Shown: piece after piece, positions 8,861 to 36,670 of the stretch | Layout: each line of letters begins with the position of its first letter | How positions within the stretch are numbered: position 1 is the stretch's first letter | DNA from: an uncultured Bacilli bacterium | GTDB lineage: Bacteria; Bacillota_I; Bacilli_A; RF39; UBA660 | Assembly: GCA_947626115.1 (NCBI GenBank) | Contig: CANQQX010000005.1 | Coordinates: 1 to 53,431 of the forward strand | Length of the DNA: 53,431 bases | Reading direction: 5' to 3' | The notes under the pieces: model-generated | Databases searched by the model: none | Told to the model about the DNA's origin: nothing | Seen by the model: the letters and a program-made list of their open reading frames with translations, nothing else | Position numbers and translations under genes: made by a program

Positions 8861-8888
8861 TTGATTCTCGGGGGGGGTATATTATAAT
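8861..8888 (+). promoter_or_regulatory. Poly-G spacer promoter, copy 1 (G8 at 8870-8877)
   Basis: TTGATT-CTC-GGGGGGGG-TATAT-TATAAT, 16-bp spacer. Confidence 0.85.
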
Positions 8889-8915
8889 AATCTTATAGTA
8901 ATAGGAGAGTCAGGT

Positions 8916-10427
8916 ATGAAAAGAATAAGTAAAAAAGATATAATGTTAATTATAGTGTTATTAATAAGCTTAACATTAATATATAAATTACCTAAGTTAC
9001 TAATAAATAAAAATAATCAAGAAATACCCGAAGTAAAATTAAAAGAAATTAAAGATCGTAAATCTTTTGCCATAATGGTACCTAATGAAAATGGAGATGC
9101 TTATGTAGAATATACTGAAGATACATGGCCAAGTGAAGGATATAAATATAAAGAAGCAAAATGTATAAATAATAATGGCGAGATAGTAGAGAATGCTATT
9201 ACTTTTGATAGTGAAACAAAAACAGTAATATTAGAAACTGATAAAACAGTAGCATGTACTCTATATTTTGATGCATTACCAAAAGAAATCTATATTAATT
9301 TAAGTTCTAAACCAGAAAATTTTGAAACTGAATATCGTGATAAGATAAAACAGATTGAATTTGTAAATTATATTGAAACAGATGATGCAACAGCAAGTTG
9401 GGATTTTTCTGATACTCAGAATGGTACAAAATCTGGTTCTGTAATGGGATGGGTAAAACCTATGGTGGATGATAATGAACATTATATTCTTTATATTGGT
9501 TGCACAAAAGAAAAAATAAAAGCCAAAATACTTGATAATGGTTTTTATGGAATGGCTGTTTTAGAAAGTATCAATTTTAATGATATGTTAGATACTAGTG
9601 AGACGACTTCAATGCAAAATTTGTTTAACTCATGTAAAAATCTTAAGAATGTGAATTCGATTACCAATTGGGATGTTTCTAATGTTGCTATAGGTAGCCT
9701 TTTTACTGACTGCGGGGTAGCTGGTATGTTTTCAGGTAGTGGCATCGAATCTGTTGATTTAAGTGGTTGGAATAAATATTTTCCATTGGATGTAATGTTT
9801 AGGAGCACGAATCTGAAGGAAATTAACTTAAGCAATTGGGATATTTATATAAATCGTGTAACTAGTAAAGTTGCTTTTTATGATGAAAGTGTTTTTAATA
9901 ATTTTTCACTACCTGTTGAGAAACTTATTTTAAATAATACTCATTTTGTGGTTGCGAAAACGAGCACTTCATATTCTTTTAATTATGTTGGGGCATTAAG
10001 TGGCTTAAAAGATTTAAAAGAAATATATTTAAATGGAGCTAAATTTGATCAGGCTGGTGATTTCGGTTTATTTCAACAATGTCCTAGTTTAGTAAAAGTG
10101 GAAATAAAAAATGCTAATATTGGGAATATGTCATCGTTAAATAAGATGTTTTATGCAAGTACTAAACTAGAAGAGATAGATTTAACCGGAAACGATACAT
10201 CGTATGTTAGCAATTTTGGATATATGTTTGGTAATTGTACTAGTATTAAAACTATTCATTTTGATAATTTCGCACATTCTAAAGCAACAAGCTCATCATC
10301 TTATCAATATATGTTTTATAATATACCAAAGACTGCGACAATATATGTTCCTACTAATGAAGTAAGTTGGATAAAATCTAGATTGTCTGAAAGCAGTAGA
10401 TCTAGTGTTACAGTAATTGGAGTCTAA
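8916..10427 (+). CDS. BspA/DUF285-type leucine-rich-repeat surface protein
   Basis: N-terminal TM. Repeats DTSETTSMQNLFNSC, NWDVSNV and DTSYVSNFGYMFGNC. Confidence 0.85.
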   Translation: MKRISKKDIMLIIVLLISLTLIYKLPKLLINKNNQEIPEVKLKEIKDRKSFAIMVPNENGDAYVEYTEDTWPSEGYKYKEAKCINNNGEIVENAITFDSETKTVILETDKTVACTLYFDALPKEIYINLSSKPENFETEYRDKIKQIEFVNYIETDDATASWDFSDTQNGTKSGSVMGWVKPMVDDNEHYILYIGCTKEKIKAKILDNGFYGMAVLESINFNDMLDTSETTSMQNLFNSCKNLKNVNSITNWDVSNVAIGSLFTDCGVAGMFSGSGIESVDLSGWNKYFPLDVMFRSTNLKEINLSNWDIYINRVTSKVAFYDESVFNNFSLPVEKLILNNTHFVVAKTSTSYSFNYVGALSGLKDLKEIYLNGAKFDQAGDFGLFQQCPSLVKVEIKNANIGNMSSLNKMFYASTKLEEIDLTGNDTSYVSNFGYMFGNCTSIKTIHFDNFAHSKATSSSSYQYMFYNIPKTATIYVPTNEVSWIKSRLSESSRSSVTVIGV

Positions 10428-10538
10428 TTTTTTTAAATAATTTTATATTTTGAATGATAATTCTTACTATAAAGATTAGTTAAAAAATATTTTTCTTGTA
10501 AATTTAATTATAATCATATATAATAATCAATACGGAAA

Positions 10539-11261
10539 GTGATGGTTATAATGAATACAAGACAAAGAGTAAATTTAATATCAAGATTAAGACAAAATAA
10601 AGTATCACAAGATAAAATTGATAAGTTATTTACTTTAACTGAGAAAGAATTAGATAAATTATATGCAATAAGTAATAATGATTTATTTATAAGTGAAGTA
10701 GCAAAGATATTAAATGCTAATAATGAAAAAAATAGTTTTTATCTAGAAAGTTTAGCAAAATATAAAAATAGATTTAGTAAAGAAGATTATGGGAAAGCTA
10801 TTAATATTATTAAAAGTTGTAAACAACAATATAATGCCAGATGTGCTTTTATCGCTTTAAAAAGTGAATTATTACAAGAACATAGTTTAAATATTAGTGG
10901 TGCTAGTATTATAAGTAGAGCAGATAAAGAAGTAAATGCTGAATATGCTTTAAGAATACTTAATATTCCAAGATTAATTGAATTAGGTCTTGCTATTCCA
11001 ATGGCTAGTTTAATTGTAGGGACTAAAAATAAAACAACATGTTTAAATATTATTAGAAATGTTTTAAAAAATGTTGAATTATATGAAGAAGTAAAAAATA
11101 TTATAGATAATATAACTATTTATTTAAGAAGAACTTTAATAACTGTCCCAGGTCATGAAGAAGAAGTAACTGATTTACTTAATGTATTTAATGAAATATT
11201 AGATAAACCTTTAATTGTTGCACATGTAAAAGAAGAGAAAAAGAAAATAAGAAAAAAATAA
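10539..11261 (+). CDS. Hypothetical helical protein
   Basis: 240-aa ORF with host-like codon usage. Probable start at ATG 10551. Confidence 0.7.
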   Translation: MMVIMNTRQRVNLISRLRQNKVSQDKIDKLFTLTEKELDKLYAISNNDLFISEVAKILNANNEKNSFYLESLAKYKNRFSKEDYGKAINIIKSCKQQYNARCAFIALKSELLQEHSLNISGASIISRADKEVNAEYALRILNIPRLIELGLAIPMASLIVGTKNKTTCLNIIRNVLKNVELYEEVKNIIDNITIYLRRTLITVPGHEEEVTDLLNVFNEILDKPLIVAHVKEEKKKIRKK

Positions 11262-11297
11262 TAATTAAAATAAAAATCACTTAATATTATTTATTAG

Positions 11298-11897
11298 GTG
11301 ATTTTTTTGATTAAATTAATTAAACATCGGGGTAAAAGTAATAAAAATATTAAAGAAAATACTTATGAAGCTATTAAGTTAGCTTTAGAAGATAATAAAT
11401 ATCTAGGAGTAGAATTTGATATAAGAGAAACTAAAGATCATGAATTTGTTATCTATCATAATTCCTTATTAAATAATAAATTAATTAGTAATTATTTATA
11501 TAGAGAACTACCTAAATTTATCCCTAGATTAAAAGATATCTTAAATATAGGTAGTTCTAAGATATTTTTAATTGAAATTAAAAATATCACTAGTATTGAT
11601 AAATTTATTAATTTACTAAAGAAATATCAAGATAAAAATATTTATGTGATGAGTTTTTCTAATAGTATTATAAATAAAATAAATAAGAGTAATAAAACTT
11701 ATAAAGTAGGAGTATTAAATTATGTTTTAAATACTAATAATGATATTAAAAAGTTGGATTTTTTAGTTATTTTAAATAGTATATTAGATGAAAATATTAT
11801 GAGTAGATTAAAAGGTTTAGAAATATTTTCTTATGGTATTTTAGAAAGTATCGAAGAATATAAATATAATAATGTTTATTATATTGTAGATGATTAA
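11298..11897 (+). CDS. Glycerophosphodiester phosphodiesterase family protein
   Basis: HRG, ENT, GVEFDIRETKD..VIYH and IEIK motifs. Confidence 0.88.
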   Translation: MIFLIKLIKHRGKSNKNIKENTYEAIKLALEDNKYLGVEFDIRETKDHEFVIYHNSLLNNKLISNYLYRELPKFIPRLKDILNIGSSKIFLIEIKNITSIDKFINLLKKYQDKNIYVMSFSNSIINKINKSNKTYKVGVLNYVLNTNNDIKKLDFLVILNSILDENIMSRLKGLEIFSYGILESIEEYKYNNVYYIVDD

Positions 11898-13030
11898 CGA
11901 TATCTAACTAAACTTCTAATTTTATTTTTATCATATTGCATACAAGATGGATTAAATTCAAGTATTTCATTTGGAATATTATCAAACATATATTTATTAG
12001 TGGTTTTAACTACTTTTAAAATATCTTTACTAATTAATGGATCAATCATAGTTTCATATATTTCTTTACATCTTTTAGTATCATGAAATCTATTATACAT
12101 AGTTGCATAATCTTTAACAGTAACTAAACCATTCATAGATAGTAAATATAGAAGAGTTTGATAATCTTCAGCAGTTAGTTTTCTATTTACAGATTTAGCG
12201 ATACATTCCATAATGTATTCTTTTTCTAATTCAGTTTGCACAGTTTTAAGCATATAGTAAATAAAATAAGATATATTTCGATTTTTAATTGTATCTTCAA
12301 TGGCATTATCATAATCTCTACCTTTAAAAGTAATACCACGATTAAAGATAATATAAGGGTAAGCTTTCTTATTTAAAAGATACCACATAGCAACTGTTCT
12401 AGAAGTTCTGCCATTAACATCAAAATATGGATGAATATATACAAAATAGAAATGTAATATTTGACTTTTAATATATTCATCTGTCATATTATCATTAAAT
12501 TCATTATTATTTAAAAATTCAAAATAGGCTTCCATAAATTCATCTATTCTACTCTCAGGTATTCCTTTATCTAGTTCATCAACATTTTTAGATATAATAC
12601 CACCCTTAACTATGTATACTGGAGCTGTACGATAATATGTACCCATTCTTGAAGCATCTTTCTCTTCTAGTAAATCTTTAGAAAGTATATCATATAATTC
12701 TTTTAAAGATTCTTCATTAATACTAGGATTATTTAAAATATAATTATAGCCATAATAAAGATTCATAATTCTTTTGACTTTTTTCTCGTCTTTACCATGA
12801 TATTTTTTGGCAATAACTTCTTCAATTAAATTGACATCGTCAGAGTAGCCTTCAATTTGGTTATTGGCTTTTAATTCATGGGAAAACATCACATCTCTTG
12901 CAAATAAAGATGAACATAAATGTGGTTCACTTTCGACGAAAGTTTCTAATTCTTCCCGTTTTTGAGCATAATATTTTTCATCGATTTTAAGTGGTATACC
13001 ATTTAAAAATTTTAAAGATAAATTAGTCAT
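11894..13030 (-). CDS. Fic-domain protein
   Basis: HPYFDVNGRTSR motif. N-terminal NNQIEG resembles the inhibitory-helix motif. Confidence 0.9.
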   Translation of the reverse strand: MTNLSLKFLNGIPLKIDEKYYAQKREELETFVESEPHLCSSLFARDVMFSHELKANNQIEGYSDDVNLIEEVIAKKYHGKDEKKVKRIMNLYYGYNYILNNPSINEESLKELYDILSKDLLEEKDASRMGTYYRTAPVYIVKGGIISKNVDELDKGIPESRIDEFMEAYFEFLNNNEFNDNMTDEYIKSQILHFYFVYIHPYFDVNGRTSRTVAMWYLLNKKAYPYIIFNRGITFKGRDYDNAIEDTIKNRNISYFIYYMLKTVQTELEKEYIMECIAKSVNRKLTAEDYQTLLYLLSMNGLVTVKDYATMYNRFHDTKRCKEIYETMIDPLISKDILKVVKTTNKYMFDNIPNEILEFNPSCMQYDKNKIRSLVRYR

Positions 13031-13167
13031 AAATTAATCCCCCTTTAAAAGTTAGTTGCTATTATAGCAGAAAAGTTTTTAAAAATAAATACTTAGTTGA
13101 CACTTTATTTTTTTAAAGTCCTACTAATTTAAATACTTTTATTGTATAATTTAAGTAGGTGATACAT

Positions 13168-14253
13168 ATGCGAGTTATTATTTCGGCTGGTGGTACAGGT
13201 GGTCATATTTATCCAGCACTTTCTATAATTAAAAAATTACAAGAAAAAGAAGCTTATTTAGAAGTATTATATATTGGTACTCATAATAGAATGGAAAAAG
13301 ATATTATACCTAATAATAATATTCCTTATGAAAGTATTGAAATATATGGTTTTAGTAAAAATATTTTAAAAGATTTTAAGAATGTTTATTTACTTTATAA
13401 AGCTTATAATAAATGTTTAAAGATAATGAAAGATTTTAAACCAGATATTGTAATTGGGGTTGGTGGTTATGTTACGATGCCCGTTATAATGGCTGCTAGA
13501 AAATTAAACATTAAAAGTGTAATTCATGAACAAAATATTATTCCAGGTAAAACTAATAAATATTTAAGTAGAGGTGTTGATGCAGTATTTACTTCATTTA
13601 AAGAAAGTGAAAAGTATTTTGATAAAGGTGTAAATTGTATTTATACAGGTCATCCATCTGGTGATAATGTTTTAACTTTAAAACCAATAAGAAAAGATGA
13701 ATTAGGTTTATCTAAAAATAAAAAATTAGTTTTAATTACATCTGGATCTTTAGGTAGTAGTGCGATGAATGAAAAGTTAGTAGAATTTCTAAACCTAAGT
13801 GGTAAAGAAGATTATGAAGTATTATTTATTACTGGTAAAGGAAATTATGAAGAATTTAATAAGAATAAATTTAACAGTAATATTAAAGTAATGCCTTATT
13901 TAGATAATTTAAGTGCTTTGCTCAAAAGTTGTAACTTAGTAATAGGTAGAGCAGGGGCAGGTACTATTAGTGAGTTACTGGTTGCTAGAGTTCCTAGTAT
14001 TTTAATACCTAGTCCAAATGTTGCTAATAACCATCAATATTATAATGCGAAAGCGATGCAAGATAAAAATTTGGCTATCATGATTGAAGAAAAAGATTTA
14101 GATAGTAAAGTATTATATGAAAGAGTTAAAGGACTTTTAAGTAATAATGAAGAATATCGCAATCTAAAAAATAATTTATATGAAAATATTATGCCATCTA
14201 GTAGTGAGAAAATATATGAGAAAATAAAGGAGATTATGAAAAATGCTAAATAA
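13168..14253 (+). CDS. murG: Undecaprenyl-PP-MurNAc-pentapeptide GlcNAc transferase
   Basis: GGTGGHIYP, GGYV, HEQN, GSLG, RAGAGT and HQYYNA. Confidence 0.97.
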   Translation: MRVIISAGGTGGHIYPALSIIKKLQEKEAYLEVLYIGTHNRMEKDIIPNNNIPYESIEIYGFSKNILKDFKNVYLLYKAYNKCLKIMKDFKPDIVIGVGGYVTMPVIMAARKLNIKSVIHEQNIIPGKTNKYLSRGVDAVFTSFKESEKYFDKGVNCIYTGHPSGDNVLTLKPIRKDELGLSKNKKLVLITSGSLGSSAMNEKLVEFLNLSGKEDYEVLFITGKGNYEEFNKNKFNSNIKVMPYLDNLSALLKSCNLVIGRAGAGTISELLVARVPSILIPSPNVANNHQYYNAKAMQDKNLAIMIEEKDLDSKVLYERVKGLLSNNEEYRNLKNNLYENIMPSSSEKIYEKIKEIMKNAK

Positions 14254-15118
14254 ATTTGGAGAAGTAATAGAAAATGCTTCATTAGAAGCTTATAATACTT
14301 ATGGTATTAAGACTAGTTGTAAGTATTTAGTTAAGCCAAAAGATGAAGAACAATTATATTTTTTAGTTGATTATTTACGTAAAAATAAAATTAAATATTA
14401 TGTTTTAGGTAAAGGCTCTAATGTTATTTTACCTGATAAACCTTTTGATGGGGTAATTATTAGTTTAGAATATTTTAATAAAATCAAAATTAATGGTCGT
14501 AATGTTAAAGCTGAAGCTGGTGTCGTTTTAGGCACTTTAGTTAAGGAATGCGTTAATAATAATTTAAAAGGATTTGAGTATCTAGCGGGTATTCCTGGTT
14601 CTTTAGGTGGTGCCCTATATGGTAATGCGGGGGTTAAAGATCATACTATTTATGATTATTTAAATGAAATAGTTGTTCTTAGAAATAATGAAATTGATAC
14701 TCTTGGTAAAGGTGATTTTGAAGTATCTTATCGTCATACCGAATTTAAAGATAATAATGATATTATTTTAAGAGCGTGTTTTTATCTTGATGAAGGAAAC
14801 AAAGAAGAATTAGAGAGTATTATCAAAGAAAATAGATTAAAAAGACAAAATAGTCAACCATTAGAATATAAAAATGCTGGTAGTGTTTTTAAAAATCCAG
14901 AAGGAATGTTTGCAGGTAAATTAATTGAAGATGCCGGTCTTAAAGGCTATTGTATAGGTGATGCCCAAATTTCCGAAAAGCATGCTAATTTTATTATTAA
15001 TAAAGGAAATGCAACAAGTGAAGATATTAAAAAGTTAATAAAAAAAATTCAAGAAGAAGTAAAAAATAAATTTAATGTAGAATTAGAATTAGAACAAGTT
15101 GTAGTAGAGTGGGATTAG
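14243..15118 (+). CDS. murB: UDP-N-acetylenolpyruvoylglucosamine reductase
   Basis: GKGSNV, GIPGSLGGALYGNAG, AGSVFKNP and HANFIIN. Confidence 0.97.
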   Translation: MLNKFGEVIENASLEAYNTYGIKTSCKYLVKPKDEEQLYFLVDYLRKNKIKYYVLGKGSNVILPDKPFDGVIISLEYFNKIKINGRNVKAEAGVVLGTLVKECVNNNLKGFEYLAGIPGSLGGALYGNAGVKDHTIYDYLNEIVVLRNNEIDTLGKGDFEVSYRHTEFKDNNDIILRACFYLDEGNKEELESIIKENRLKRQNSQPLEYKNAGSVFKNPEGMFAGKLIEDAGLKGYCIGDAQISEKHANFIINKGNATSEDIKKLIKKIQEEVKNKFNVELELEQVVVEWD

Positions 15119-15119
15119 A

Positions 15120-15893
15120 ATGGATAAAAAAAAGAAAAAAAGAAAACTTAATACGAAAAGATTTTTTACCTTTTTATTTATTATAGTTTTATTAGGTATA
15201 GCTATCTATTATTTTAGTAATGTTCCAATAAAAAATATTAAAGTTGAAGGAAATTTCTATTTAAAAGATAACTATATTGCTAATTATCTAGATTTAAAAG
15301 ATGCTAAAATACTTACAGTAAGCAAGAGTAAAATTAAAAAGAAATTACTTGAAATAGATTTAATTAGTGATGTAAAAATATCGAAAAATTATTTTGGAAC
15401 ATTAAAATTAAAAATAACGGAAGATAAAATATTATTTTATAATTGGAATAATAAAAAAATAGTTTTATCTAGTGGAAGAGAAATTCCATATAATAAAGAA
15501 TATTTGGGAGTACCTACTCTTATTAATTATGTTCCAGATGATATATATAAAGAATTTATAGAGAAATTAAATAAAATAGATAAAGAAGTATTAAGTTTAG
15601 TTAGTGAAATAGAATATAGTAGATCAATGATTAATGATAAAGTTATTGATGATAAAAGATTCTTATTTCGGATGAATGATGGAAATCAAGTATATATTAA
15701 TACGATTAATATTGAAAAATTTAATGATTATTTAGAAATATATGATGCCATTGAAAATAAAAATGGTGATACTAAAGGATGTTTATATTTAGATAGTAAT
15801 AGTGAAAATAATCATTTTAATAATTGTGAAGAAGATAAAATAGTAAATCCTGAAGATACAGATGAAGAAAAGGATGAAAACAATGAAGATTAA
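15120..15893 (+). CDS. ftsQ: Cell division protein FtsQ/DivIB
   Basis: Basic tail, single TM, POTRA-like region (IKVEGN) and MNDGN. Follows murB. Confidence 0.85.
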   Translation: MDKKKKKRKLNTKRFFTFLFIIVLLGIAIYYFSNVPIKNIKVEGNFYLKDNYIANYLDLKDAKILTVSKSKIKKKLLEIDLISDVKISKNYFGTLKLKITEDKILFYNWNNKKIVLSSGREIPYNKEYLGVPTLINYVPDDIYKEFIEKLNKIDKEVLSLVSEIEYSRSMINDKVIDDKRFLFRMNDGNQVYINTINIEKFNDYLEIYDAIENKNGDTKGCLYLDSNSENNHFNNCEEDKIVNPEDTDEEKDENNED

Positions 15894-16491
15894 TTATGAT
15901 AAAAAATTAGAAGAATTACTTCAAAACTTAGATTATAAGCCAAAATTATTACTTCATAGTTGTTGTGGTCCATGTTCATCTTATGTAATTACTTATTTAA
16001 AAGATTATTTTGATATAACTATTCTTTATTATAATCCTAATATTGAACCTAAAAGTGAATATGAAAAAAGAAAGAGTGAACAAATAAGATTAATTAAAGA
16101 ATTAAATTTACCTAATGTAAGAATTTTAGATATTGATTATGATAATGATACTTATAGGGAATATATTAAAGGTCATGAAGAAGATAGAGAAGGTGGTGAA
16201 AGATGCCATCTATGTTATCGGTTAAGACTAGAGAAAACTGCTAAAGTTGCTAAAGAAAATAATTATGAGTATTTTGGAACTACTCTTACAGTAAGCCCTT
16301 ATAAGAATGCCGAAGTTTTAAATAAAATTGGCGAAGAGTTGTCTAATATTTATAATATAAAATGGTTATATAGTGATTTTAAGAAAAAAGATGGCTATAA
16401 GAAATCAATTGAACTATCACATAAATATAATTTATATCGGCAAGATTATTGTGGCTGTGATTTTAGTAATTATCATAATATTGAAGAATAA
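15883..16491 (+). CDS. queH: Epoxyqueuosine reductase QueH (DUF208)
   Basis: LLLHSCCGPCS, YNPNI, RCHLCY and YRQDYCGC. Confidence 0.93.
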   Translation: MKINYDKKLEELLQNLDYKPKLLLHSCCGPCSSYVITYLKDYFDITILYYNPNIEPKSEYEKRKSEQIRLIKELNLPNVRILDIDYDNDTYREYIKGHEEDREGGERCHLCYRLRLEKTAKVAKENNYEYFGTTLTVSPYKNAEVLNKIGEELSNIYNIKWLYSDFKKKDGYKKSIELSHKYNLYRQDYCGCDFSNYHNIEE

Positions 16492-16508
16492 AATTTATTT
16501 AATACTAT

Positions 16509-16560
16509 AAAAAACCAGCGGTATATCGGATGTTTCACCGAATAGTCCTACTGGTTTTCT
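16509..16560 (-). ncRNA. Candidate ~52-nt hairpin RNA (also usable as the queH terminator)
   Basis: Bulged hairpin AAAACCAG...CTGGTTTT directly downstream of a minus-strand TTGACA-18-TGaTATATT promoter (16596-16567). Confidence 0.4.
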
Positions 16561-16640
16561 TTTTAAAATATATCATAGATAAAATAAAATTGTCAATAAT
16601 TAGATTTTTTATTTAGAAATTAAATATAAGTGTTTTTTGC

Positions 16641-16669
16641 TTGTATTCAAGCATATAATTTGTTACAAT
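16641..16669 (+). promoter_or_regulatory. rpsB promoter
   Basis: TTGTAT-17-TACAAT with extended TG. Confidence 0.7.
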
Positions 16670-16697
16670 ATGTATGGCTTTAAAAGTCAAATAGACA

Positions 16698-16759
16698 TTA
16701 ATTTTTAGCCCACGCCGAGTGCTTAAATATATTTAAGTGGTAAGGGTATTAAAAATTAA
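16698..16759 (+). promoter_or_regulatory. Structured rpsB 5' leader (probable S2 autoregulatory element)
   Basis: Outer stem TTAATTTTTA-GCCC / GGGT-TAAAAATTAA and inner stem CTTAAAT/ATTTAAG. rpsB leaders are known to be structured. Confidence 0.55.
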
Positions 16760-16789
16760 GAAGAAAAACGAAAGGAAGAGTGATATTTT

Positions 16790-17848: not shown

Positions 17849-17867
17849 AAAGGGAGGATGAAATTTT

Positions 17868-18746: not shown

Positions 18747-18761
18747 TTAATATATATTAAG

Positions 18762-18783
18762 AAGCACAAAATTGTGCTTTTTT
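18762..18783 (+). terminator. Intrinsic terminator after tsf
   Basis: AAGCACA-AAAT-TGTGCTT plus T-run. Confidence 0.75.
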
Positions 18784-18929
18784 AATGGCTAAATTTTTCA
18801 AAAAGATAAAAAACGTCTTGATTCTCGGGGGGGGTATACTATAATAATCTTATAATAGATAATGGTTCTGTATACATAAATACGATATTTGTGATATAAT
18901 AAGAAAGATAATAGAGAAGGTTATTATAA
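18781..18929 (+). repeat. ~150-bp upstream cassette shared with 36606-36756
   Basis: Near-identical sequence from TTTAAT.GCTAAATTTTTCAAAAAG to the start codon. Confidence 0.9.
18818..18845 (+). promoter_or_regulatory. Poly-G spacer promoter, copy 2 (G8 at 18827-18834)
   Basis: TTGATT-CTC-GGGGGGGG-TATAC-TATAAT, 16-bp spacer. Confidence 0.85.
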
Positions 18930-20393
18930 ATGAAAAGAATAATAATAAATAACTATAAATTTATTTTTGGTTTAATACTTGGCTTAGTAATATCTTTAAC
19001 AACAGTATATGCAATTGATGCCTATATTGAAAGTAATAAAGTAGCCTATAATAATCATAATAAAACCAATGTCGAAGAAGCCATAGATGAATTGTACGAA
19101 AAAAGTGGCATGCATAAAAATAAATGGGTAGATCCAATACTTAATGGAGCAGATCCTGTATTAAAGAGTCCATTAATACCAGTTGAAATAAAAGACAATG
19201 GTGAAGTTTATTATGCTAACGAAAATAGTGAATGGTATAATTATAAGAAAAAAAGATGGGCTAACGCAGTTATCTTAATTGATGAACCTAGTAATGCAAA
19301 TTACCAAGTTGGAGATCACATAATAGAAGATGATATCGAAAGTTACTTTGTCTGGATACCAAGATATCAATATAAAGTATGGGATTTAGGAAAATATTCA
19401 AATGCGATAGCAGTTTCAAACATGAAAGATGTTCAAGATCAAAATGATACATCTTACTATAAATTGTTTGTTAACTATAGAACAATAGATATAAGATTTG
19501 GTACATATGATAAATATCCAAAGATGGCAGAACCAACATCAACAGGAGTATATTACACTCATCCAGCCTTTACTTTAGGAAATAAAGATTTAAATGGTAT
19601 CTGGATAGGGAAATTTGAAACAGGTGGAACAAATGCAGCAGATATTATTATTAAACCAAATGTAACGTCATGGCGAAATGAAACAGTAAGGACCTTTTTT
19701 GATGCTGCAAAACAATATAAAAGAGATTTAGATAGTCATATGATAAAGAATACAGAATGGGGAGCAGTAGCTTATTTATCACATTCTGCTTATGGTATTA
19801 ATACAGCAGTAAATATAAATAATGCTAAAGATAATATAACAGGTTATGCTGCTGCTCCAGGTACTAATCAAACTAAAATTCCGGGAGAAAATGGATCAAT
19901 TACTGACCCACAAGTAACTCAACCTTATAATACTGAAGCAGGTTATTTAGCCAGTACAACAGGCAATATTACCGGAGTATATGATATGAGTGGTGGAGCA
20001 CATGAATATGTAGCTAGTTGTTTAGAAAATACCTGGAATATAAGTGCAAGTGATTTTACTCTTGATTTACTAAATACTGAAATAGCTGCCGGATATATAG
20101 ATAAATATGCTAGTGATACTACTAATTATGCATATGATAAGCGTATTTTAGGTGATGCCATTGGAGAAATAGGCCCATATTATAATTTTATTGATAGCGA
20201 TGGTTATCCAAGAGCACATAATAGTTGGTATTATGATTATTCAATTTTTTTTGATCCTGGTCAGCCTTGGCTAACTCGTGGTATGGATTCTGGCTCTGGC
20301 ACATTAGCTAGTCAATTTGCTTTTGGCCCTAGTTCAGGCATAAAATTAAATAATGCAACTACTCGTCTTATTTTAGCACCCATAAATAATTAA
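18930..20393 (+). CDS. Surface protein with C-terminal FGE-sulfatase/CLec-like domain, paralog 1
   Basis: N-terminal signal or TM segment. FVWIPRY, WIGKFE, KNTEWGAVAYL, GVYDMSGGAHEYV, PWLTRG and terminal RLIL. Confidence 0.8.
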   Translation: MKRIIINNYKFIFGLILGLVISLTTVYAIDAYIESNKVAYNNHNKTNVEEAIDELYEKSGMHKNKWVDPILNGADPVLKSPLIPVEIKDNGEVYYANENSEWYNYKKKRWANAVILIDEPSNANYQVGDHIIEDDIESYFVWIPRYQYKVWDLGKYSNAIAVSNMKDVQDQNDTSYYKLFVNYRTIDIRFGTYDKYPKMAEPTSTGVYYTHPAFTLGNKDLNGIWIGKFETGGTNAADIIIKPNVTSWRNETVRTFFDAAKQYKRDLDSHMIKNTEWGAVAYLSHSAYGINTAVNINNAKDNITGYAAAPGTNQTKIPGENGSITDPQVTQPYNTEAGYLASTTGNITGVYDMSGGAHEYVASCLENTWNISASDFTLDLLNTEIAAGYIDKYASDTTNYAYDKRILGDAIGEIGPYYNFIDSDGYPRAHNSWYYDYSIFFDPGQPWLTRGMDSGSGTLASQFAFGPSSGIKLNNATTRLILAPINN

Positions 20394-20416
20394 AGATAAT
20401 AAGGAGATTATTATAA

Positions 20417-21901
20417 ATGAAGAGAATAAATAATAAATGTATATTTATACTTGGTATATTAATAGGCGTTGTATTATCAGTAACAACAGTATATGCAGTA
20501 GATGCTTATATCGAAAGTAATAAAGTTGCCTATAATAATCATAATAAAAATAATGTTGAAGAAGCAATAGATGAATTATACGAAAAAAGTGGTATGCATA
20601 AAGATAAATGGGTAGATCCAATACTTAATGGAGCGGATCCTGTATTAAAAGATCCATTAATACCAGTTGAAATAAAACCTAATGGAGATGTATATTATGC
20701 TAACTTAAATAGTGAATGGTATAACTATAGTGAAAAAAGATGGGCCAATGCAATTATATTAGTAGATAGTCCCAGTAATACAAATTATAAAGTTGGAGAT
20801 CATATTCTAGAGAGTGATATTGAAAGTTATTTTGTGTGGATTCCAAGATATCAATATAAAGTATGGGATTTAGGAAAATATATCAGTGCTCCAGATGGAA
20901 GTACATTAGTAAATGGAAGTTATGCAACATCAACAACCCAAGCAATGAATAAATCAAGAATAATCGATATCCAATTTGGAACACCAAATAATATACCCAA
21001 AATGACAGAGCCAAGTACAACAGGAGTATATTATACTCATCCAGCCTTTACTTTAGGAAATAAAGATTTAAATGGTATCTGGGTAGGCAAATTTGAAACC
21101 GGATATAAAGGAGCAGATAGCACTACTAGTGCACAAGTAAATAGAGAAGATTCTACAAATGTAATAGTAAAACCAAATGTTCATTCGTGGCGATATAATT
21201 CTATTAAAAATATGTTCATGACATCATTTAATTATGAAAGAAATTTAGATAGTCATATGATGAAGAATACGGAATGGGGAGCGGTAGCATATTTATCTCA
21301 TTCACAATATGGTCTTGGCAATGAAGTAGAAATAAACAATACTAGTGATTATATGACTGGTTATGTAGCAGCCCCAAATACAAATCAAAGTACTCGTTTA
21401 GGTACTTATGTAGAAAGCAATGATAAAACCCAAACTCAACCATGGAATACACCAACTGGTCATTTAGGAAGTACAACCGGCAATATTAGTGGAGTATATG
21501 ATATGAGTGGTGGATCATGGGAATTAGTAGCGGGATGTATGGAAGGCCTAGTAGGTGATAGTGGCTTTGACACTTCAACTTTAGCAACTGAAATGGCTAA
21601 TGGCTATATTGATAAGTATCCCAATGTTAGTACTGAAACATCTTATAATAATAGAATTCTAGGGGATGCCACTGGAGAATTAGGCCCCTTTTATAGTTTT
21701 TATATTGGTGTAGGAACTAATTCTCATCATAATAGTTGGTATGGTGATGGAAATTACTTTGTTGAACCAAATAGACCTTGGTTTTCTCGTGGTAATGGCT
21801 TTAATGATGGTGCAGAAGCTGGGCAATTTGCAGCTTTTATTGGTAATGGTGGATTAAGTTATTCTACTTCTTTTCGCCTAGTTCTTACTCCAATTAAATA
21901 A
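20417..21901 (+). CDS. Surface protein with C-terminal FGE-sulfatase/CLec-like domain, paralog 2
   Basis: Same motifs (GVYDMSGGSWE, PWFSRG, SFRLVL). RBS AAGGAG. Confidence 0.8.
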   Translation: MKRINNKCIFILGILIGVVLSVTTVYAVDAYIESNKVAYNNHNKNNVEEAIDELYEKSGMHKDKWVDPILNGADPVLKDPLIPVEIKPNGDVYYANLNSEWYNYSEKRWANAIILVDSPSNTNYKVGDHILESDIESYFVWIPRYQYKVWDLGKYISAPDGSTLVNGSYATSTTQAMNKSRIIDIQFGTPNNIPKMTEPSTTGVYYTHPAFTLGNKDLNGIWVGKFETGYKGADSTTSAQVNREDSTNVIVKPNVHSWRYNSIKNMFMTSFNYERNLDSHMMKNTEWGAVAYLSHSQYGLGNEVEINNTSDYMTGYVAAPNTNQSTRLGTYVESNDKTQTQPWNTPTGHLGSTTGNISGVYDMSGGSWELVAGCMEGLVGDSGFDTSTLATEMANGYIDKYPNVSTETSYNNRILGDATGELGPFYSFYIGVGTNSHHNSWYGDGNYFVEPNRPWFSRGNGFNDGAEAGQFAAFIGNGGLSYSTSFRLVLTPIK

Positions 21902-26295: not shown

Positions 26296-26342
26296 AATTA
26301 TGTTATATTAAGTTAATAAATATTTTAAATGGGGTAATTACT

Positions 26343-30300: not shown

Positions 30301-33300
30301 ATAAAACTTATAAAATAGAAAAAATAATTTTAGAAAATGATATTGAAATAAAAGCTACTGCTAATATTTCTGTATATGTATTAAAAGATATTCCATATGT
30401 TAACAAATTGAATTTAAATGAAGATAATGAATCGATAAGCTATGAATTACATGATCCAGATAATGCACTTACTAGTGGAACAATCACAATTACTGGAAAA
30501 GATGATCAAAATCTTACAGAAAATGTTCAAAAAAGTGGTAAAGCTACTATAAATTATAATTTTCAAGATGGTGAAAGTTATGTAGTTAAAGTTATTGGTA
30601 GTTATGATTTAGATTCTAATAAAGAAAATAAACAAAATAGTGTTGATAATAAGGAGATGTCTTTAGAATCTTTCATAGTAGGTGGCGAATATAATTTTAC
30701 TCTTACTAATGCTAGTATTACAGATGCTCTTAAACCTAATGAATATCCAATATTAACATTTAAAAGTACTAATACTAGAAGTACATTTATAAATAGAGCA
30801 GAATTAACCATTGATGGTGAAAGTAGTCAATATGAAGTTACTAAAATTGATAAAGATACATATCAAATAGAATTATCTAATGTAGATATTAATCCAGGCA
30901 AACATACAGTTACTTTAGATAAAGTTAGTATGAATAATGGGGCTAAAACATTTGAAAATACAAAAGATTATAAAGTAAACGAATTAACTTATACTGTTTT
31001 AAAAGAAGCTCCTAAAGCGGATGGATTAACACTAAGTGTAAATAAAGCTAATAAAAGTGTTGTAGCTAATTTTAGTATAATTGATTCAAATAATGCTCTT
31101 AAAAAATTAAATGTGGCTTTAGTTGATTCAACTGGTAAAATAGTTTCTACTAAAGTTCTTAATTATGCTGAATTTGCTAGTAAAGATACAATAAAAGTTG
31201 AACTTTCTTATAATGGCAATACTGATGGCAGATATACCGTAAAAGTTTTAGCAGATTATGAACTTGCTCAAAAATATTTCTATGCTAATGAATGTATTGG
31301 CGAAAATACAGTTTTAGTTTATAGTAATGATGAAATTAGAATTGATAGAATGTATGTAGTTAACGATAGAAATGTTGAACAAGTTGATGGTTTATTCCCA
31401 ACCAAGATGCAAAAGAATTATCAAATTGCGGTGGAAGTAACAATCGCTGATTCTGTTAAAGCCCGTGGTTATGGTAGAGTATCTGGAGTAACTATCAATG
31501 GCGTTAATTATCCAGCTAACCAAATAAGTGGTTATAAATCTAAAGTTTATATTAATGTTCCTGCCACTGCGGGTGTAATTGAATTAACTGCTAATCGGGT
31601 TCAACTAGCTAATGATGGTTATTATAAAATATATAATGATTATTATTCTGTACCAGAAACGACTTTAAAATTAGATGTTTTAAAAGATAAACCAAAAATA
31701 GAAAATCTAGAAATTGAAGAAGATTATGAGAAAAAAGAAGTTACCTTTAATTTTGATGTAGTATTAGATGAAACTGCTAAAAGTGATGAATTTACGGATG
31801 GAACTATTACTTTAAATGGTGTAGATAAAGATATCAAAGTAGGACCAAATAATATTACCTTTACTAATGTAGATCAAAATAAAACTTATGATTTAATATT
31901 TAAGGGAACATATGATTTAGATACTAATACCTTTGATGACATAAGTAATGAGAAAAATAAAACTGTTAAAGGTGAATTTTATCGAGTAAAATATGGTTTA
32001 TATAATGATAATACATATGAAACAATAAATATTACTGATGCCAAGCTTGTTAGTGAAAAAGGTAATAAATATTTTGAAAAAAATGAAAAAGTTAAATTAC
32101 AATTTAAAGTTTCTGGTCTTAATGAAAATTTAGGTGTATTACCTAGCAAAGTAGTTATTAAAGATGAAGAATATAATTTAACAAAATTAGATGATAATTA
32201 TTATGAATTAATAATAGATGGTTATTCTAGTTTTGGCGAAAAAGCAATAACTATTACCGATATAATTTTAGATAATAGTAAAAAAGTTACTTTAACTGAG
32301 CCATTTACCTTTAATCCTGAAGTATTAAAAGACGCTATTAAAATAAATGATTATAAGTATAAAGTTGATGATGATAATATTACAATTAATATCGATTTAG
32401 ATGATGCCGATGGTGCAATAGTAGGATTTGCTAATGTAACAGTAACTGATGAAAAAGGAAAAGAACTATATAATAATAATTATCAAAATGAAATTGTAAT
32501 TAATCGTGCAGATAAGAGTATTTTAAGATATTATGTCAAACTTACTTTAGATTATGACCGAGATATTGATAAAGGTGATGATACTGCTAACCATTATAGT
32601 GATGTTTTACTTCTTGATGAATTAATATCATTAGAGAAAAATAATATTGAATTAAAAGATATTATTGATATTAACTTATATAAATATGCTAATGATAATA
32701 ATGAAGAAAGTATCAAGAAAATTGATGAAATTTCAATTACGGAATTAAAAGATAAATTAGATTCATATTTTGTTGAAGTTGTAATGGAAAATCTGCCAGC
32801 TATTCGAACTAAAATAGTTGATGTAAAAACTGTTCAAAATCATTTGATTTTAGTTTTAGATTATGATTATGTAACTAAAGAAGGTGGAGCGAAAAACAAT
32901 TTAGAAATTGATTTTGGTGAAATAAAAGAAAATAATAAAGCTAAAAATGAATTCCACCCAGAAACTGCAATTGAATCATTAATTGCAAAATTAGAAGCAA
33001 ATGAACCAGTTACCTTAAATCAAAATTATGATTTTTCTAAAATTAAATTAGATCGTAATGTATATATTGAAAATTATTCTAGTGTATTAGATGGTAATGG
33101 TTATACTTTTAAAAACTTAAGTAAACCATTATTTGGTACTCTTACTGGTGAAGTTAAAAATTTAAATATCAATGATGTTACCTTTGATGGCAATGGCCAT
33201 GGTGCTTTAGCTAATAATACGAATGGGGCTATAATTGAATATGTTTTAGTCGATCGCGTAACAAGAACATCTACTGCTAATAATCCTAATGGTGGTTTAA

Positions 33301-36300
33301 TTGGGGTAGCAGATAATACCAAAATAAAAACTAGTCGTGTTACCAATGTACTTATAAATGCTGGTTATTATGAACAACAAAATGGTTTATTAATTGGTAA
33401 TTCAAATAATAATACTGTTGTTGAAAATTGTTATGCTGAAGGAACTATTTCTGGTGGTTATAACTATACAAGTGGATTTATAGGTAACGCTAAATCTACT
33501 ACAATGCGAAATAATTATGCTAAAGTAACTACTAGAGGTCAATCTGGTTCTGTATTTGGTTTTGCAAGTGCTTATGGTAATAACGCATCTATTTATGAAA
33601 ATAATGTAAGTATCGCAAGTAATACAAGTACAACTATGATAAGTAGTGCTAGAACTATAAATAATAACTATTTCTTCATTAATAAAGAAGCAACTAATTC
33701 AAATGGTATAACTATTATTAAAGAAGATGAAATTAATGATGATTTATTCGCAAATAGAGTTAAACTTAGTGAAGATATTTGGTATATTAAAGATGTTAAT
33801 ATAAATAATTTACCAATCTTTCAAATAGAAAAGAAATCAGTAATTAATGATAAAACAATTGAAGATTATCAAGAAAAACATGAAACATTATATAAAAATT
33901 TAATGAAATTAATGCCTTTCTTTGATGATAAAAAAATAGTAGAAACTAGTAAGAATATTCCCGAAGATAGTAATTTAGTAACTAAAACTATTAAACATAT
34001 TGTACCAGTTGATGAAAATGGTAATTTAGTTACTTATTTAACTACTGATAATCCAAAGAAAATAAAGAATATAAAAATTATATTTACTGATGGCTCTAAA
34101 GAAGAATACAAAGTTAATTATGATAAAACCTATGATATGGTAGCGTCATATAAAATTAGTGAGTTAAATATCGATTATAATTATGAGCATTATGTTATTA
34201 ATAATGATTCGCAAGTAGTAGTTAATTTAACAAATTACTTAAAAGGATTAGATTATACTAATAATTTAGATATACTAACTACTAATGCTGATTCTAGATT
34301 ATATCGTGATTTCTATAATGAAAATACTAAATATGATTTAGAAGAATTTGTCTTAAAATATTTATCTAATAGTGAATATACTAATACTTCATCAAATAGC
34401 GCAATTAATAATTATATTGAAAGTGAAGTTAAAAAAGAGCAAAAATTAGAAAAGGCTTTATATGTCTATAATTATTTAAAGAGATTCTATGATTTAGATA
34501 TTGGTGGTATGAAGTTATATGACTTTATAATGTTTAATATGAAAGGCTTTGATGAAAGTTTAACTACCGATAAAATTGTTGAATTATATTTAGGTAATGG
34601 TAGTGGGGATAATTTTAATACTAATCAAACTAATACAAGATATAATGAAGTATTAGGTAAATATACTAATTTAAATACCATACCTAAATTAGTTGAATAT
34701 TTAGTAAAAGGGTTAACTAATGCTGATTTATCAGCATGGACTCGTAGTCAAGTTAAAAGTATTTTAGTGGAAATTCCAATTGATGGACATCCAAATGTAA
34801 AATATACTTTATGGGATCATTTTATCAGTGAATCAAATGATGAGATATTAAATCAATTCTTACCAATGCTTACTTTACCAGAAGGAGCAGCTTATATAAT
34901 GTCAATGCCAGTTCAATATATAATTGGAGCGCAAAGAACATATATAGTTGATCCATCTAATCCAAGTGATGTAGAGAATTTAAAAGCGAGAATGAAAACT
35001 TATGAAACAAGAATGAAAAGATATTTTGATACTGCTTATTCAATATTAGAAGATGAAAAATTATTTAATGATATTTTAATTTATAGTGTTGATAAGAGAC
35101 TTACTAAAACAGAAACTGGTTCTGTTAGTAATACTGCTTATACAACAACTGAACCATTCCATAAAAACTTTGTCGAAGCAACTGGTTTGTGGGCGGCTGC
35201 AGCTGGAGTAAATGCTGCTGCCTGGGGTCCTCGTCTTGAATGGCAAGTAGCAGGTATTTTAGATAGTACGCTTGCTGAAGAAGGTTATAATGATACATCT
35301 CATGTTACCTTTAGAACTTGGTCACATGAATCAGCTCACCTTATTGATGCTAGATTATTCTTAAGAAATAATGGACGTCGTTTTGATGCAGGTGGCGAAG
35401 ATTATGCTGATAACTTCTTAATGCAATCATTTGATAGAAATAGTATTACAATGAATTTATCAATGATGATGGATAAAACAGCAAAAAGTGTCGAAGAAGC
35501 AACTAAAGCTAATGATGCAAAATTAGGCCCAGTAGCATCTAACCTAACACCAGAGAGAATCAATAGTCCAGAAAAGATTCATGATTTCTATCGTAAATTA
35601 TTTGAAACAGTTTATGTAATTGATTATATTGAAGCACAAGCATTCTTAAAACTTCCGGCTGATACACAAAAAGATTTAGCTATTCAAGTATCTTATCCAA
35701 ATGAAACAAAACAATTTACTAGAGTAGTTGATGAAAATGGTAAAGATACTGATCAATTTGAAGGTCCATTCTATAAAGATGATGAATTCGCTAAATATCG
35801 AGCTAGAGAAACAACTAAATATACGAGATTAAATGAATTAACTGATTTTAATACACCATTAAGAACAATGAATGATTTAATTAATAATAGAATTATGTTA
35901 TATCCTGGTGTTTATCGTTATTCATCTCGTGGTAATAATTCATATGGTGGAGAAGGAATTAATACCGTTCACTGGTATCAACCATGGAATCCAGATGGTA
36001 GACCTGATTCTTATGCTTTAAAATGGATAAGTTATGAAATGCTTGGTTGGAAGGGATATAATAATGGTTTTGTTGAATATGCAAGTAATGTTCATTATCA
36101 ACCAAATAAAATCTATTCAGATTTATCTCATCCAAAAAAAGGTACATCGACCGTAAATTATAAATCAGATAGCATGGCTTTAGCTCAAATTTCTAATAAT
36201 CGTTTCACCAACTTTAGTGATTACAAAAAATATCGCTTTAATGATATTAAAGATAAATTAGATCGCCTTGATAGTATAATTAATGTTGATGATTATATTG

Positions 36301-36554
36301 ATGCTTTTGTAGAATCGTTGCAAAAAGACGCCATTGATATTACCGAAGGAGTTCAAAGTGAACTTGATAGAGTTCCAACTTGCCCAACTGATTATTATTG
36401 TTCTCGTGGTAAATTTGCTACTTATTTATCTTATCAATATAGTACAGCATTAAGACAAGAAATATACTACAAGTTAAAAACTGAAACTAACGATTTTAGA
36501 GATGAAATTTTTAAAGATTCTACGCAACAAACTATTACTAAGTTAGCCGAATAA
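27327..36554 (+). CDS. Giant surface zinc metalloprotease (ZmpA/B/C, peptidase M26-like) with cohesin-like and dockerin-like domains
   Basis: Signal peptide, cohesin-like beta domain, two TMs, two DVNNDG Ca-binding loops, about 7 large repeats, GLUG-like motifs, and HESAH with Glu 20 residues downstream. Confidence 0.85.
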   Translation: MKEKFKYLLVFLITIILLPISVLAKESVELKIDKTDLKVGDEVKVTASVPNKMEAYAIMATLKYDKNVFQIVNDSNFTIKNDESIKYSKETNKFGIINKTGKISLNDGDTLFTVNLKVKDDANVGNTNIALTNITYTDGDKVQNLDTTSLKILVTKDAKDGEIVPANKENEIVEDEENIIKTYNNIPLIIFLGILDVIGLITILIINNKNKENNDDKKKKTIFALIALEIVLALITIILLWLNFNKTDVNNDGKKDYHDAEEIIDYLINIEGTKEKNKTNTNKYDVNNDGKVDIEDIGNTTEQIEDNTKVTLKELKEDNEYYVEKGKITLKFTAEITPKEAKITKVKIDNKYYNVELVSGVYIAIVDNKEAGVHNFVIEEVELSNGVKRKTNLKITKEVLKDRPVVDDLSHDIRTSELSFTVKDKDKALQSARITVFEGNITEEDIKNSAIQTNPDDFDNFKVVFEEELDLTKNSFTFKPKLDIGGVYTIVITGKYDLDSKIGDNNNYEEQFLNNGLNVITVGKITITPKSTDEIFLTKKTNHDYLFDVDFEPQIIAQDVKQVLIGEQYVDVTYEDGHLKLVLDDNKIAGAKNIIISAVKLEDGTDVLCHYEISYDVLKDEPTIENFVYHKKTNKITFALKDNDNAIKDANIKITNKDNKEVFAENLSLDTKDYAYNNINLKEGDTYNINIVGNYDLDSNVNNDANDGTAKYEHNLTIYNVELQNANEEEVYYTEKGEEITLKFKAIINPTNEDAKISQVTIGDGVYEPQKDENGIYSVTITAPNKAEEKKYTIRNVIMDDEDIDESLSLKVDVLKDVPTIEDLLIDESKNIPVISFTIKDPDNALDKNAIGNLVIAKDGGKTETIAIDKDFKEIALDAFADELAGSTFDLDIKANYSRHNCENASKYKEVDKKLIDTKQFKIYTATLTPESNKNFVPKNEIVEFKLKSDIKPNDGSTIKSFVLENNKVVDASKINDGSYAINLETLNVAGDKTYKIEKIILENDIEIKATANISVYVLKDIPYVNKLNLNEDNESISYELHDPDNALTSGTITITGKDDQNLTENVQKSGKATINYNFQDGESYVVKVIGSYDLDSNKENKQNSVDNKEMSLESFIVGGEYNFTLTNASITDALKPNEYPILTFKSTNTRSTFINRAELTIDGESSQYEVTKIDKDTYQIELSNVDINPGKHTVTLDKVSMNNGAKTFENTKDYKVNELTYTVLKEAPKADGLTLSVNKANKSVVANFSIIDSNNALKKLNVALVDSTGKIVSTKVLNYAEFASKDTIKVELSYNGNTDGRYTVKVLADYELAQKYFYANECIGENTVLVYSNDEIRIDRMYVVNDRNVEQVDGLFPTKMQKNYQIAVEVTIADSVKARGYGRVSGVTINGVNYPANQISGYKSKVYINVPATAGVIELTANRVQLANDGYYKIYNDYYSVPETTLKLDVLKDKPKIENLEIEEDYEKKEVTFNFDVVLDETAKSDEFTDGTITLNGVDKDIKVGPNNITFTNVDQNKTYDLIFKGTYDLDTNTFDDISNEKNKTVKGEFYRVKYGLYNDNTYETINITDAKLVSEKGNKYFEKNEKVKLQFKVSGLNENLGVLPSKVVIKDEEYNLTKLDDNYYELIIDGYSSFGEKAITITDIILDNSKKVTLTEPFTFNPEVLKDAIKINDYKYKVDDDNITINIDLDDADGAIVGFANVTVTDEKGKELYNNNYQNEIVINRADKSILRYYVKLTLDYDRDIDKGDDTANHYSDVLLLDELISLEKNNIELKDIIDINLYKYANDNNEESIKKIDEISITELKDKLDSYFVEVVMENLPAIRTKIVDVKTVQNHLILVLDYDYVTKEGGAKNNLEIDFGEIKENNKAKNEFHPETAIESLIAKLEANEPVTLNQNYDFSKIKLDRNVYIENYSSVLDGNGYTFKNLSKPLFGTLTGEVKNLNINDVTFDGNGHGALANNTNGAIIEYVLVDRVTRTSTANNPNGGLIGVADNTKIKTSRVTNVLINAGYYEQQNGLLIGNSNNNTVVENCYAEGTISGGYNYTSGFIGNAKSTTMRNNYAKVTTRGQSGSVFGFASAYGNNASIYENNVSIASNTSTTMISSARTINNNYFFINKEATNSNGITIIKEDEINDDLFANRVKLSEDIWYIKDVNINNLPIFQIEKKSVINDKTIEDYQEKHETLYKNLMKLMPFFDDKKIVETSKNIPEDSNLVTKTIKHIVPVDENGNLVTYLTTDNPKKIKNIKIIFTDGSKEEYKVNYDKTYDMVASYKISELNIDYNYEHYVINNDSQVVVNLTNYLKGLDYTNNLDILTTNADSRLYRDFYNENTKYDLEEFVLKYLSNSEYTNTSSNSAINNYIESEVKKEQKLEKALYVYNYLKRFYDLDIGGMKLYDFIMFNMKGFDESLTTDKIVELYLGNGSGDNFNTNQTNTRYNEVLGKYTNLNTIPKLVEYLVKGLTNADLSAWTRSQVKSILVEIPIDGHPNVKYTLWDHFISESNDEILNQFLPMLTLPEGAAYIMSMPVQYIIGAQRTYIVDPSNPSDVENLKARMKTYETRMKRYFDTAYSILEDEKLFNDILIYSVDKRLTKTETGSVSNTAYTTTEPFHKNFVEATGLWAAAAGVNAAAWGPRLEWQVAGILDSTLAEEGYNDTSHVTFRTWSHESAHLIDARLFLRNNGRRFDAGGEDYADNFLMQSFDRNSITMNLSMMMDKTAKSVEEATKANDAKLGPVASNLTPERINSPEKIHDFYRKLFETVYVIDYIEAQAFLKLPADTQKDLAIQVSYPNETKQFTRVVDENGKDTDQFEGPFYKDDEFAKYRARETTKYTRLNELTDFNTPLRTMNDLINNRIMLYPGVYRYSSRGNNSYGGEGINTVHWYQPWNPDGRPDSYALKWISYEMLGWKGYNNGFVEYASNVHYQPNKIYSDLSHPKKGTSTVNYKSDSMALAQISNNRFTNFSDYKKYRFNDIKDKLDRLDSIINVDDYIDAFVESLQKDAIDITEGVQSELDRVPTCPTDYYCSRGKFATYLSYQYSTALRQEIYYKLKTETNDFRDEIFKDSTQQTITKLAE

Positions 36555-36557
36555 AGC

Positions 36558-36595
36558 AAAACAGGATAATTAAAAAAATAAATTATCCTGTTTTT
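36558..36595 (+). terminator. Intrinsic terminator
   Basis: AAAACAGGATAATT / AATTATCCTGTTTT. Confidence 0.8.
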
Positions 36596-36642
36596 ATTTT
36601 CTTTTTTTAATAGCTAAATTTTTCAAAAAGATAAAAAATGTC

Positions 36643-36670
36643 TTGATTCTCGGGGGGGGTATATTATAAT
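36643..36670 (+). promoter_or_regulatory. Poly-G spacer promoter, copy 3 (G8 at 36652-36659)
   Basis: TTGATT-CTC-GGGGGGGG-TATAT-TATAAT, 16-bp spacer. Confidence 0.85.

Follow-up and report, generated by a model that had tools for sequence, protein, structure and literature searches.

Do runs of G set between the two boxes of a promoter act as switches for the surface proteins of an uncultured gut bacterium? The question is raised by contig CANQQX010000005.1 of an uncultured Bacilli bacterium (GTDB lineage Bacilli_A; RF39; UBA660), whose 53,431 nucleotides were analyzed as a whole and are hereafter called the window. Three promoters of this window carry a run of eight G (G8) between their -35 and -10 boxes, and a preliminary description of the same DNA had proposed them as candidate phase-variation switches. 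Our analysis covered the window, the remainder of the genome and the genomes of relatives. The three motifs are part of a set that extends over the genome and comprises about 50 promoters of the sigma-A type with a poly-G run in the spacer, and we consider it probable that these tracts form a slipped-strand contingency system, in which spacer length would tune the promoter of each surface-protein gene.

The window is contig C5 of assembly G000 (GCA_947626115.1), a metagenome bin of 56 contigs and 1.27 Mb with 26% GC, the same value as in the window itself, and a completeness of 93%. The pattern CTTGATTCTCGGGGGGGGTATA was found there in three exact copies on the + strand, at 8860, 18817 and 36642, with none expected from dinucleotide-preserving shuffles. 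All three copies share one layout, with boxes assigned from the sequence: TTGATT, a spacer of 16 bp composed of CTC, G8 and TATAT or TATAC, and TATAAT. A consensus promoter scan also called TTGATT-16-TATAAT at 8861-8888. The preliminary description had located the three copies exactly, from TTGATT through TATAAT (Table 1), and had rightly singled them out as the only long G runs of the window, as we observed no further G/C run of 6 or more and three runs of 5. A distance of 38-97 nt separates the G runs from the ATG downstream, which places them outside the coding region. Since a terminator-like hairpin follows the gene upstream of the first module (Table 1), promoter 1 heads a separate transcription unit; terminator-like hairpins of the upstream genes, read by eye, also precede module 2 (near 18760-18785) and module 3 (near 36555-36600).

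Over the whole genome, the spectrum of G/C homopolymers is bimodal, with 163 runs of 5, 14 of 6, 8 of 7, 45 of 8 and 4 of 9. Among the 57 runs of at least 7, 54 stand after a C and 54 before TA, and in 54 cases an ATG open reading frame (ORF) of at least 40 aa begins no more than 400 nt downstream, with a hydrophobic N-terminus in the listed products. Promoter-like modules before secreted or surface-protein genes account for 49 of these runs. We classified 42 of them as type I (TTGAnn-N3-Gn-N5-TAnAnT), with G7 in 4 modules (15 bp), G8 in 35 (16 bp) and G9 in 3 (17 bp), and 7 as type II, in which the run abuts the -10 box and the spacers measure 15-19 bp; the other runs number 8, four of them in an insertion element. 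Once the genome had been scanned and the downstream genes classified, the motif was therefore found to be genome-wide, as had been supposed. It is also portable, since it precedes the unrelated secreted families DUF285/PARCEL, CLec-fold, Flg_new/Big_2 and DUF6591, with their N-terminal signal or anchor segments. According to clustering, a G run of at least 6 lies within 160 nt upstream of 31 of the 47 ORFs of the DUF285-type superfamily and of 13 of the 18 ORFs of the CLec-fold family, and smaller sets carry Flg_new, Flg_new_2, Big_2 or DUF6591 domains. The genes behind the modules belong to multigene families of secreted or surface proteins, which are the usual cargo of contingency loci.

The length of the run varies among paralogues and among species. 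Within G000, near-identical modules carry G7 to G9. Exact-length scans for runs of G8 to G10 in 41 other species genomes of the genus gave a tally of at least eight such runs in at least 27 of them. The numbers of G8, G9 and G10 runs were, respectively, 38, 0 and 0 in G011; 34, 4 and 1 in G018; 14, 16 and 2 in G004; 1, 18 and 1 in G020; 0, 12 and 0 in G053; 0, 6 and 19 in G043; and 0, 2 and 16 in G042. One module of G004, TTGACTCC-Gn-TATTATATAAT, exists in G8 and G9 versions in about equal numbers, and four tandem paralogues of the same genome carry G10, G9, G9 and G8. The preliminary description had held that a tract always of eight G would speak against switching; at the level of paralogues and species we observed instead G7 to G9 in this genome, G8 and G9 in G004, and a modal G9 or G10 elsewhere. 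A broader sample comprised 151 genomes of the order; apart from G000, 149 of these belong to the same family. In a tally of runs in any context, a run of at least 8 G occurs once or more in 100 of the 151, and ten times or more in 34. Named relatives, found via the CLec-fold protein, are bins labelled uncultured Bacilli or 'Tenericutes' from the rabbit, mouse and human gut, and a G8 to G11 run was present on the strand of the gene at 14 of 80 loci of CLec-fold relatives. A scan of metagenome contigs for TTGAYTCTCGGGGG...TATAYTATAAT gave no match. Of the 29 loci compared in other species downstream of the conserved gene 17868-18746, only two (in G011 and in G023, each with G8) have a tract promoter. 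The cassette is therefore accessory, and the comparison does not bear on changes of length at orthologous sites. In G000 itself, the end of contig C6 (C6:51756 region) and C41:1-60 have in common a unique upstream flank and the promoter, followed by different genes; this could be a branch of the assembly graph at the promoter repeat, or the module could be a place where gene cassettes are truly exchanged. Many contigs of relatives start or stop 10-130 nt from a G run.

In five sister species (G042, G043, G051, G053 and G054), genes for surface proteins contain the run within their 5' coding region, where its length sets whether the frame is open or closed. The G043 run lies in the first ten codons (ATG...TTCC-Gn-TTGTG...). 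With G9, the frame of G043 is open over more than 200 aa in five of six copies, the sixth being without one C and meeting a stop at codon 10; with G10, a stop follows after 26-29 aa in all four complete copies, and three more are cut by contig ends. The G10 copies of G042 are out of frame (4 of 4) and a G9 copy is open over more than 225 aa (1 of 1), and the G9 copies of G051, G053 and G054 are out of frame in 12 of 12 cases. In total, 21 complete copies are closed and 6 are open, and contingency loci would be expected to show just such a mixture, with most copies closed and few open. Genes of G043 and the DUF285 gene of the window are homologues; the pair that was compared has 33% identity over 135 aa (E 1e-12). 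For a frame gated by length in this manner, hardly any explanation other than a contingency switch offers itself, and these intragenic tracts are the strongest argument for switching. In G042, a G9 or G10 run also occurs at L112, L114, L117-L119 and L180 in a leader that looks transcribed, with a -10-like TATAAA box on one side and an intrinsic terminator on the other; the genes downstream have a KKQLIVVAF-type N-terminus.

What a change in the run might do to a promoter can be gauged from the promoters that have no tract. In this genome, tract-less TTGAC[AT]-N-TATAAT pairs have spacers of 17 bp (n = 20), 18 bp (n = 12) and 16 bp (n = 8). Among the 14 tract-less members of the two window families that possess their own upstream region, nine promoters were recognisable, of which seven have 17 bp, two have 18 bp and none has 16 bp. 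With this peak at 17 bp, the modal G8 falls one base short and G9 gives 17 bp, as the preliminary description had reckoned. We therefore propose the following mechanism. The run would gain or lose a G by slipped-strand mispairing at replication, and each such change would alter the length of the spacer and hence the strength of the promoter, independently for each surface-protein gene, the outcome being a combinatorially variable cell surface. Because G8 lies one base below the 17 bp of the tract-less promoters, it would be the low-expression state, and G9 may be the high one. The architecture of the modules, their distribution over genome and lineage, the differences in length, the preference for 17 bp and the opening and closing of frames in sister species are observations, whereas we infer switching within the population, its rate and its effect on transcription at the window promoters.

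Several observations weigh against this proposal. Exactly eight G make up 45 of the 57 runs, which could mean stabilising selection on a fixed element, and G8 is at the short end among tracts known to switch. MutS and MutL are present, so the rate of slippage is not raised by a loss of mismatch repair. For window positions 8000-20500, the contigs of four sequencing runs list no indel at the tracts among the matches listed, and contigs break at the repeated promoter; those of the source sample end at 8889 and 18845, directly after the repeated promoters, so that they carry no information on heterogeneity of run length. Among the sequencing runs listed as containing the window, ten are of DNA and none is of RNA. 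At common run lengths, the spacer of some modules measures 15 bp or 18-20 bp, so that the spacing rule is not tight, though this does fit genes that are mostly off. Finally, G047 and G008 reach the same total of 16 bp with G9 and 2 nt, as compared to G8 and 3 nt here. A total of 16 bp conserved across species could be the working optimum, which makes the direction of the switch uncertain.

It is on this direction that a first alternative differs. According to it, the tracts do slip, but G8 with its 16 bp is the fully active form, so that most of the approximately 45 genes are on by default and slippage turns genes down. The 16-bp total is indeed the mode in several species despite different numbers of G, and spacers of 16 bp are usually still functional in sigma-70-type promoters. 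However, in these same families the spacer of the recognisable tract-less promoters measures 17 or 18 bp in nine of nine cases and never 16 bp, and the intragenic tracts whose state can be read are modally off. We consequently regard a default-on state as rather unlikely.

A second alternative abandons slippage altogether: the G run would be a fixed cis element, either the site of a regulator or a structural feature of the spacer, with its length under selection and with the G7 and G9 copies neutral or damaging. The predominance of G8, the flanks C-Gn-TA conserved in 54 of 57 runs and the 16-bp total kept by a different split in other species all agree with such an element. So does the orientation of the runs, which is not required of a pure length device: wherever a downstream gene could be assigned, in promoter, leader and coding placements alike (the 57 runs and the sister loci), the run is of G on the sense strand. 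This bias could reflect either a strong G-over-C skew of the coding strand or a functional constraint. Conversely, the position of the run relative to the promoter elements is not constant across modules and species, and its varied placement (mid-spacer, beside the -10 box, within a leader that a terminator follows, in the coding region) argues against a fixed protein-binding site. Moreover, in the coding region length alone sets the open frame, G8 and G9 are about equally frequent in the G004 module, and no regulator was identified. Overall, a fixed element appears improbable to us. As for errors of sequencing or assembly, the fragmented state of this bin and the many contigs of relatives that end beside these repeats might evoke them, but they are virtually excluded, since the modules recur in the species assemblies counted above and in named assemblies from independent studies, four sequencing runs of the source sample contain the window at 0.98-0.99 of sampled words, and G9 and G10 versions of one module are found together within single assemblies.

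The proposed slippage of spacer tracts has precedents of two kinds. In Mycoplasma hyorhinis, each member of the vlp surface-lipoprotein family, which numbers up to about seven loci, has a poly-A tract in its promoter spacer. As in the genome studied here, which is likewise small and AT-rich, each paralogue has a spacer homopolymer of its own, and variation is concentrated in the mature part of the protein, with conservation of promoter, leader and signal peptide; the differences are that here the tract is poly-G and not poly-A, the loci number in the tens and mismatch-repair genes are present. Poly-G tracts are described in one study (PMC7864442) for porA, between the -10 and -35 boxes, and for tp0126 of Treponema pallidum, between the -35 and -10 boxes with the best transcription at 17 nt. 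Both porA of Neisseria meningitidis and tp0126/tpr of T. pallidum resemble our case in having a G homopolymer in the sigma-70-type spacer of a surface gene, where the number of G determines how far the -35 and -10 boxes lie apart, with 17 nt as the optimum, and in having the run in several genes of a family. In contrast to the handful of loci in those pathogens, we found about 50 in 1.27 Mb; one promoter module is common to unrelated gene families, the bearer is a lineage of gut commensal Bacilli that is uncultured, and switching with its effect on transcription is here a proposal. The second kind of precedent is intragenic, as in the contingency genes of Campylobacter jejuni, where poly-G tracts within genes vary in phase. 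The same is reported for pilus genes of Bifidobacterium breve (PMC9187656). The sister species with G9 or G10 in the first 10-30 codons of surface genes, where one G opens or closes the frame, resemble these systems, whereas in the window and its genome the start codon comes only after the run, and the frameshift mechanism is not applicable to the three loci. Our search of the literature on phase variation by poly-G promoter spacers, with supplementary files outside its range, found no report for this lineage. The mechanism itself is known (porA, tp0126, vlp), and the lineage and the scale are, as far as the searches went, new to print. Both the scale, about 50 loci or about 4% of genes, and the placement of the run in either promoter or coding region across sister species are notable.

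The features of the window and the copies of an insertion element related to the tracts are presented in Table 1.

Table 1. Features of the window and copies of the IS1182-like element. Positions are those of the window unless a contig or genome is named.
Feature	Position	Strand	Description
Terminator-like hairpin	8738..8773	+	found by scan; 15-pair stem and T run; ends upstream gene 6625-8727
Promoter module 1	8861..8888	+	-35 TTGATT 8861-8866; G8 8870-8877 in spacer CTC-G8-TATAT; -10 TATAAT 8883-8888; 16 bp
503-aa protein ('fam3')	8916..10427	+	N-terminal membrane anchor; DUF285 / PARCEL-repeat (BspA-like leucine-rich repeat, LRR) surface-protein family
Promoter module 2	18818..18845	+	TTGATT-CTC-G8(18827-18834)-TATAC-TATAAT; 16-bp spacer
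Extended -10 box TGATATAAT	18892..18900	+	tract-independent; within leader insertion of about 55 nt absent from most paralogues
Two tandem genes ('fam1')	18930..20393, 20417..21901	+	487 and 494 aa, 23 nt apart; CLec-fold secreted family
Promoter module 3	36643..36670	+	TTGATT-CTC-G8(36652-36659)-TATAT-TATAAT; 16-bp spacer
Extended -10 box TGGTATAAT	36717..36725	+	within the leader insertion that module 2 also has
Split gene ('fam1')	36757..38246	+	frames 36757-37554 (265 aa) and 37536-38246 (236 aa); frameshift near 37530
IS1182-like element	G000 C12:753-2786 (L111)		2034 bp; 587-aa transposase
Partial copies of the element	C16:1-256, C37:1-185, C15:29145-29188; also G016 (L176), G044 (L178)		

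The genes behind the three modules had been attributed to surface proteins of two unrelated families, LRR and CLec-like. This attribution stands for the families. The gene behind module 1 matched DUF285 above the cut-off (E 3.1e-13) and also the PARCEL repeat. The tandem genes behind module 2, the second of which has no promoter of its own, gave sub-threshold matches to FGE-sulfatase alone in the profile search; however, an AlphaFold model of the fam1 protein (27 relatives, pLDDT 88.7) had its best matches with TaqVP (E 1.3e-8) and Mtd, which are variable proteins with a C-type-lectin fold. One correction concerns the third locus, where the gene, a member of the CLec-fold family, is split by a frameshift. 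As no long homopolymer is present at the break, a second switch is unlikely there, and the split more probably marks a pseudogene or an error of assembly. The fam1 paralogues of the window are 68% identical in their N-terminal half and 49% in their C-terminal half. Control of the CLec-fold family by a diversity-generating retroelement was rejected, the regions around the reverse-transcriptase matches showing no repeat that matches these genes. The window also encodes a giant surface protein at 27327-36554, a 3075-aa ORF with a dockerin type I match (E 7.2e-07) and a weak GLUG motif, which has no poly-G promoter.

At modules 2 and 3, the leader insertion (window 18846-18929 and 36671-36756) lies between the poly-G promoter and the ribosome-binding site and contains a -10 box of the TGnTATAAT form. 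Genes behind these two modules would probably have, to judge from this box, a second promoter independent of the tract. With such a promoter downstream, the tract at loci 2 and 3 would be a dimmer rather than a full on/off switch. Close to the start of contig C9, the same leader stands before a paralogue without the poly-G module, and contigs that skip 18859-18915, probably paralogues, occur among the sequencing-run contigs. An Rfam search of the window gave no family, the leader insertion not being a known RNA.

The IS1182-like element has subterminal inverted GTCCGACAA repeats. Its transposase matched the IS1182 family model NF033551 (E 4.9e-61) with 207 bits, below the curated cut-off of 270, and the DUF772 transposase domain above the cut-off. 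The C12 copy sits within the G run of the promoter of a DUF285 gene, in the arrangement ATTGACTCTC-G6-[element]-G8-TATATTATAAT, parting the -35 from the -10 box. All seven visible ends of the element (five in G000, one in G016 and one in G044; ends in G006 are not among them) abut a G run of G5 to G8 beside half of a promoter, and the element carries an internal, outward-facing TTGACTC-G8-...TATAAT. This recurrent junction indicates that the element inserts specifically into these G runs. Site-specific inversion was also considered for the switch and rejected: the recombinase encoded at 22642-23538 is of the XerC/XerD type by its score, and the odd half-promoters of C12, C15, C16 and C37 are insertions of the element. 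Elsewhere in the genome, perfect inverted repeats of 87 bp (C21:1875-1961 and 5192-5278) surround a 3.2-kb segment that encodes a tyrosine recombinase and separates the N-terminal from the C-terminal half of a gene for a reverse transcriptase; this segment could be an inserted or an invertible element.

One subtype of the G-run promoters outside the window has a conserved box, TACAnCnCCnGTGTAAAATT, directly upstream of the -35. We observed it in about 15 promoters of a family of 540-590-aa proteins (e.g., C2:65538-65577, C6, C11, C27 and C48). Part of the box forms a palindrome (TACA...TGTA), and it may represent an operator or one end of a repeated unit. The N-termini of this family, KKKQKVAILIGLVTLLIAVLGATYAYFQIS (e.g., L022:326-2044), resemble signal peptides of the SipW/TasA type; NCBIfam and Pfam gave no supporting match.

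A wider reading joins these observations, and we offer it tentatively, as a possibility more than as an expectation. A family of gut Bacilli with reduced genomes might keep a largely silent library of tens of surface genes, each one G away from its active state, and the switch would have moved during evolution between the promoter spacer, where it acts on transcription, and the first codons, where it acts on translation. The IS1182-like element, specialised on the poly-G run, would split the -35 from the -10 box and, carrying an outward G8 promoter of its own, parasitise and perhaps rewire the contingency regulon.

If the tracts do switch, about 4% of the genes of a small genome would be under stochastic and independently heritable control. 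Different surface types would then coexist as a mosaic in every population of this uncultured lineage from the gut, which bears on its persistence against host immunity and phages. The single consensus of a metagenome bin would hide the state of each gene, and 'frameshifted' surface genes in related bins should not be taken as pseudogenes. Finally, the lineage would offer a natural comparison between promoter-placed and coding-placed versions of one switch acting on surface-protein families, with homology compared in one pair.

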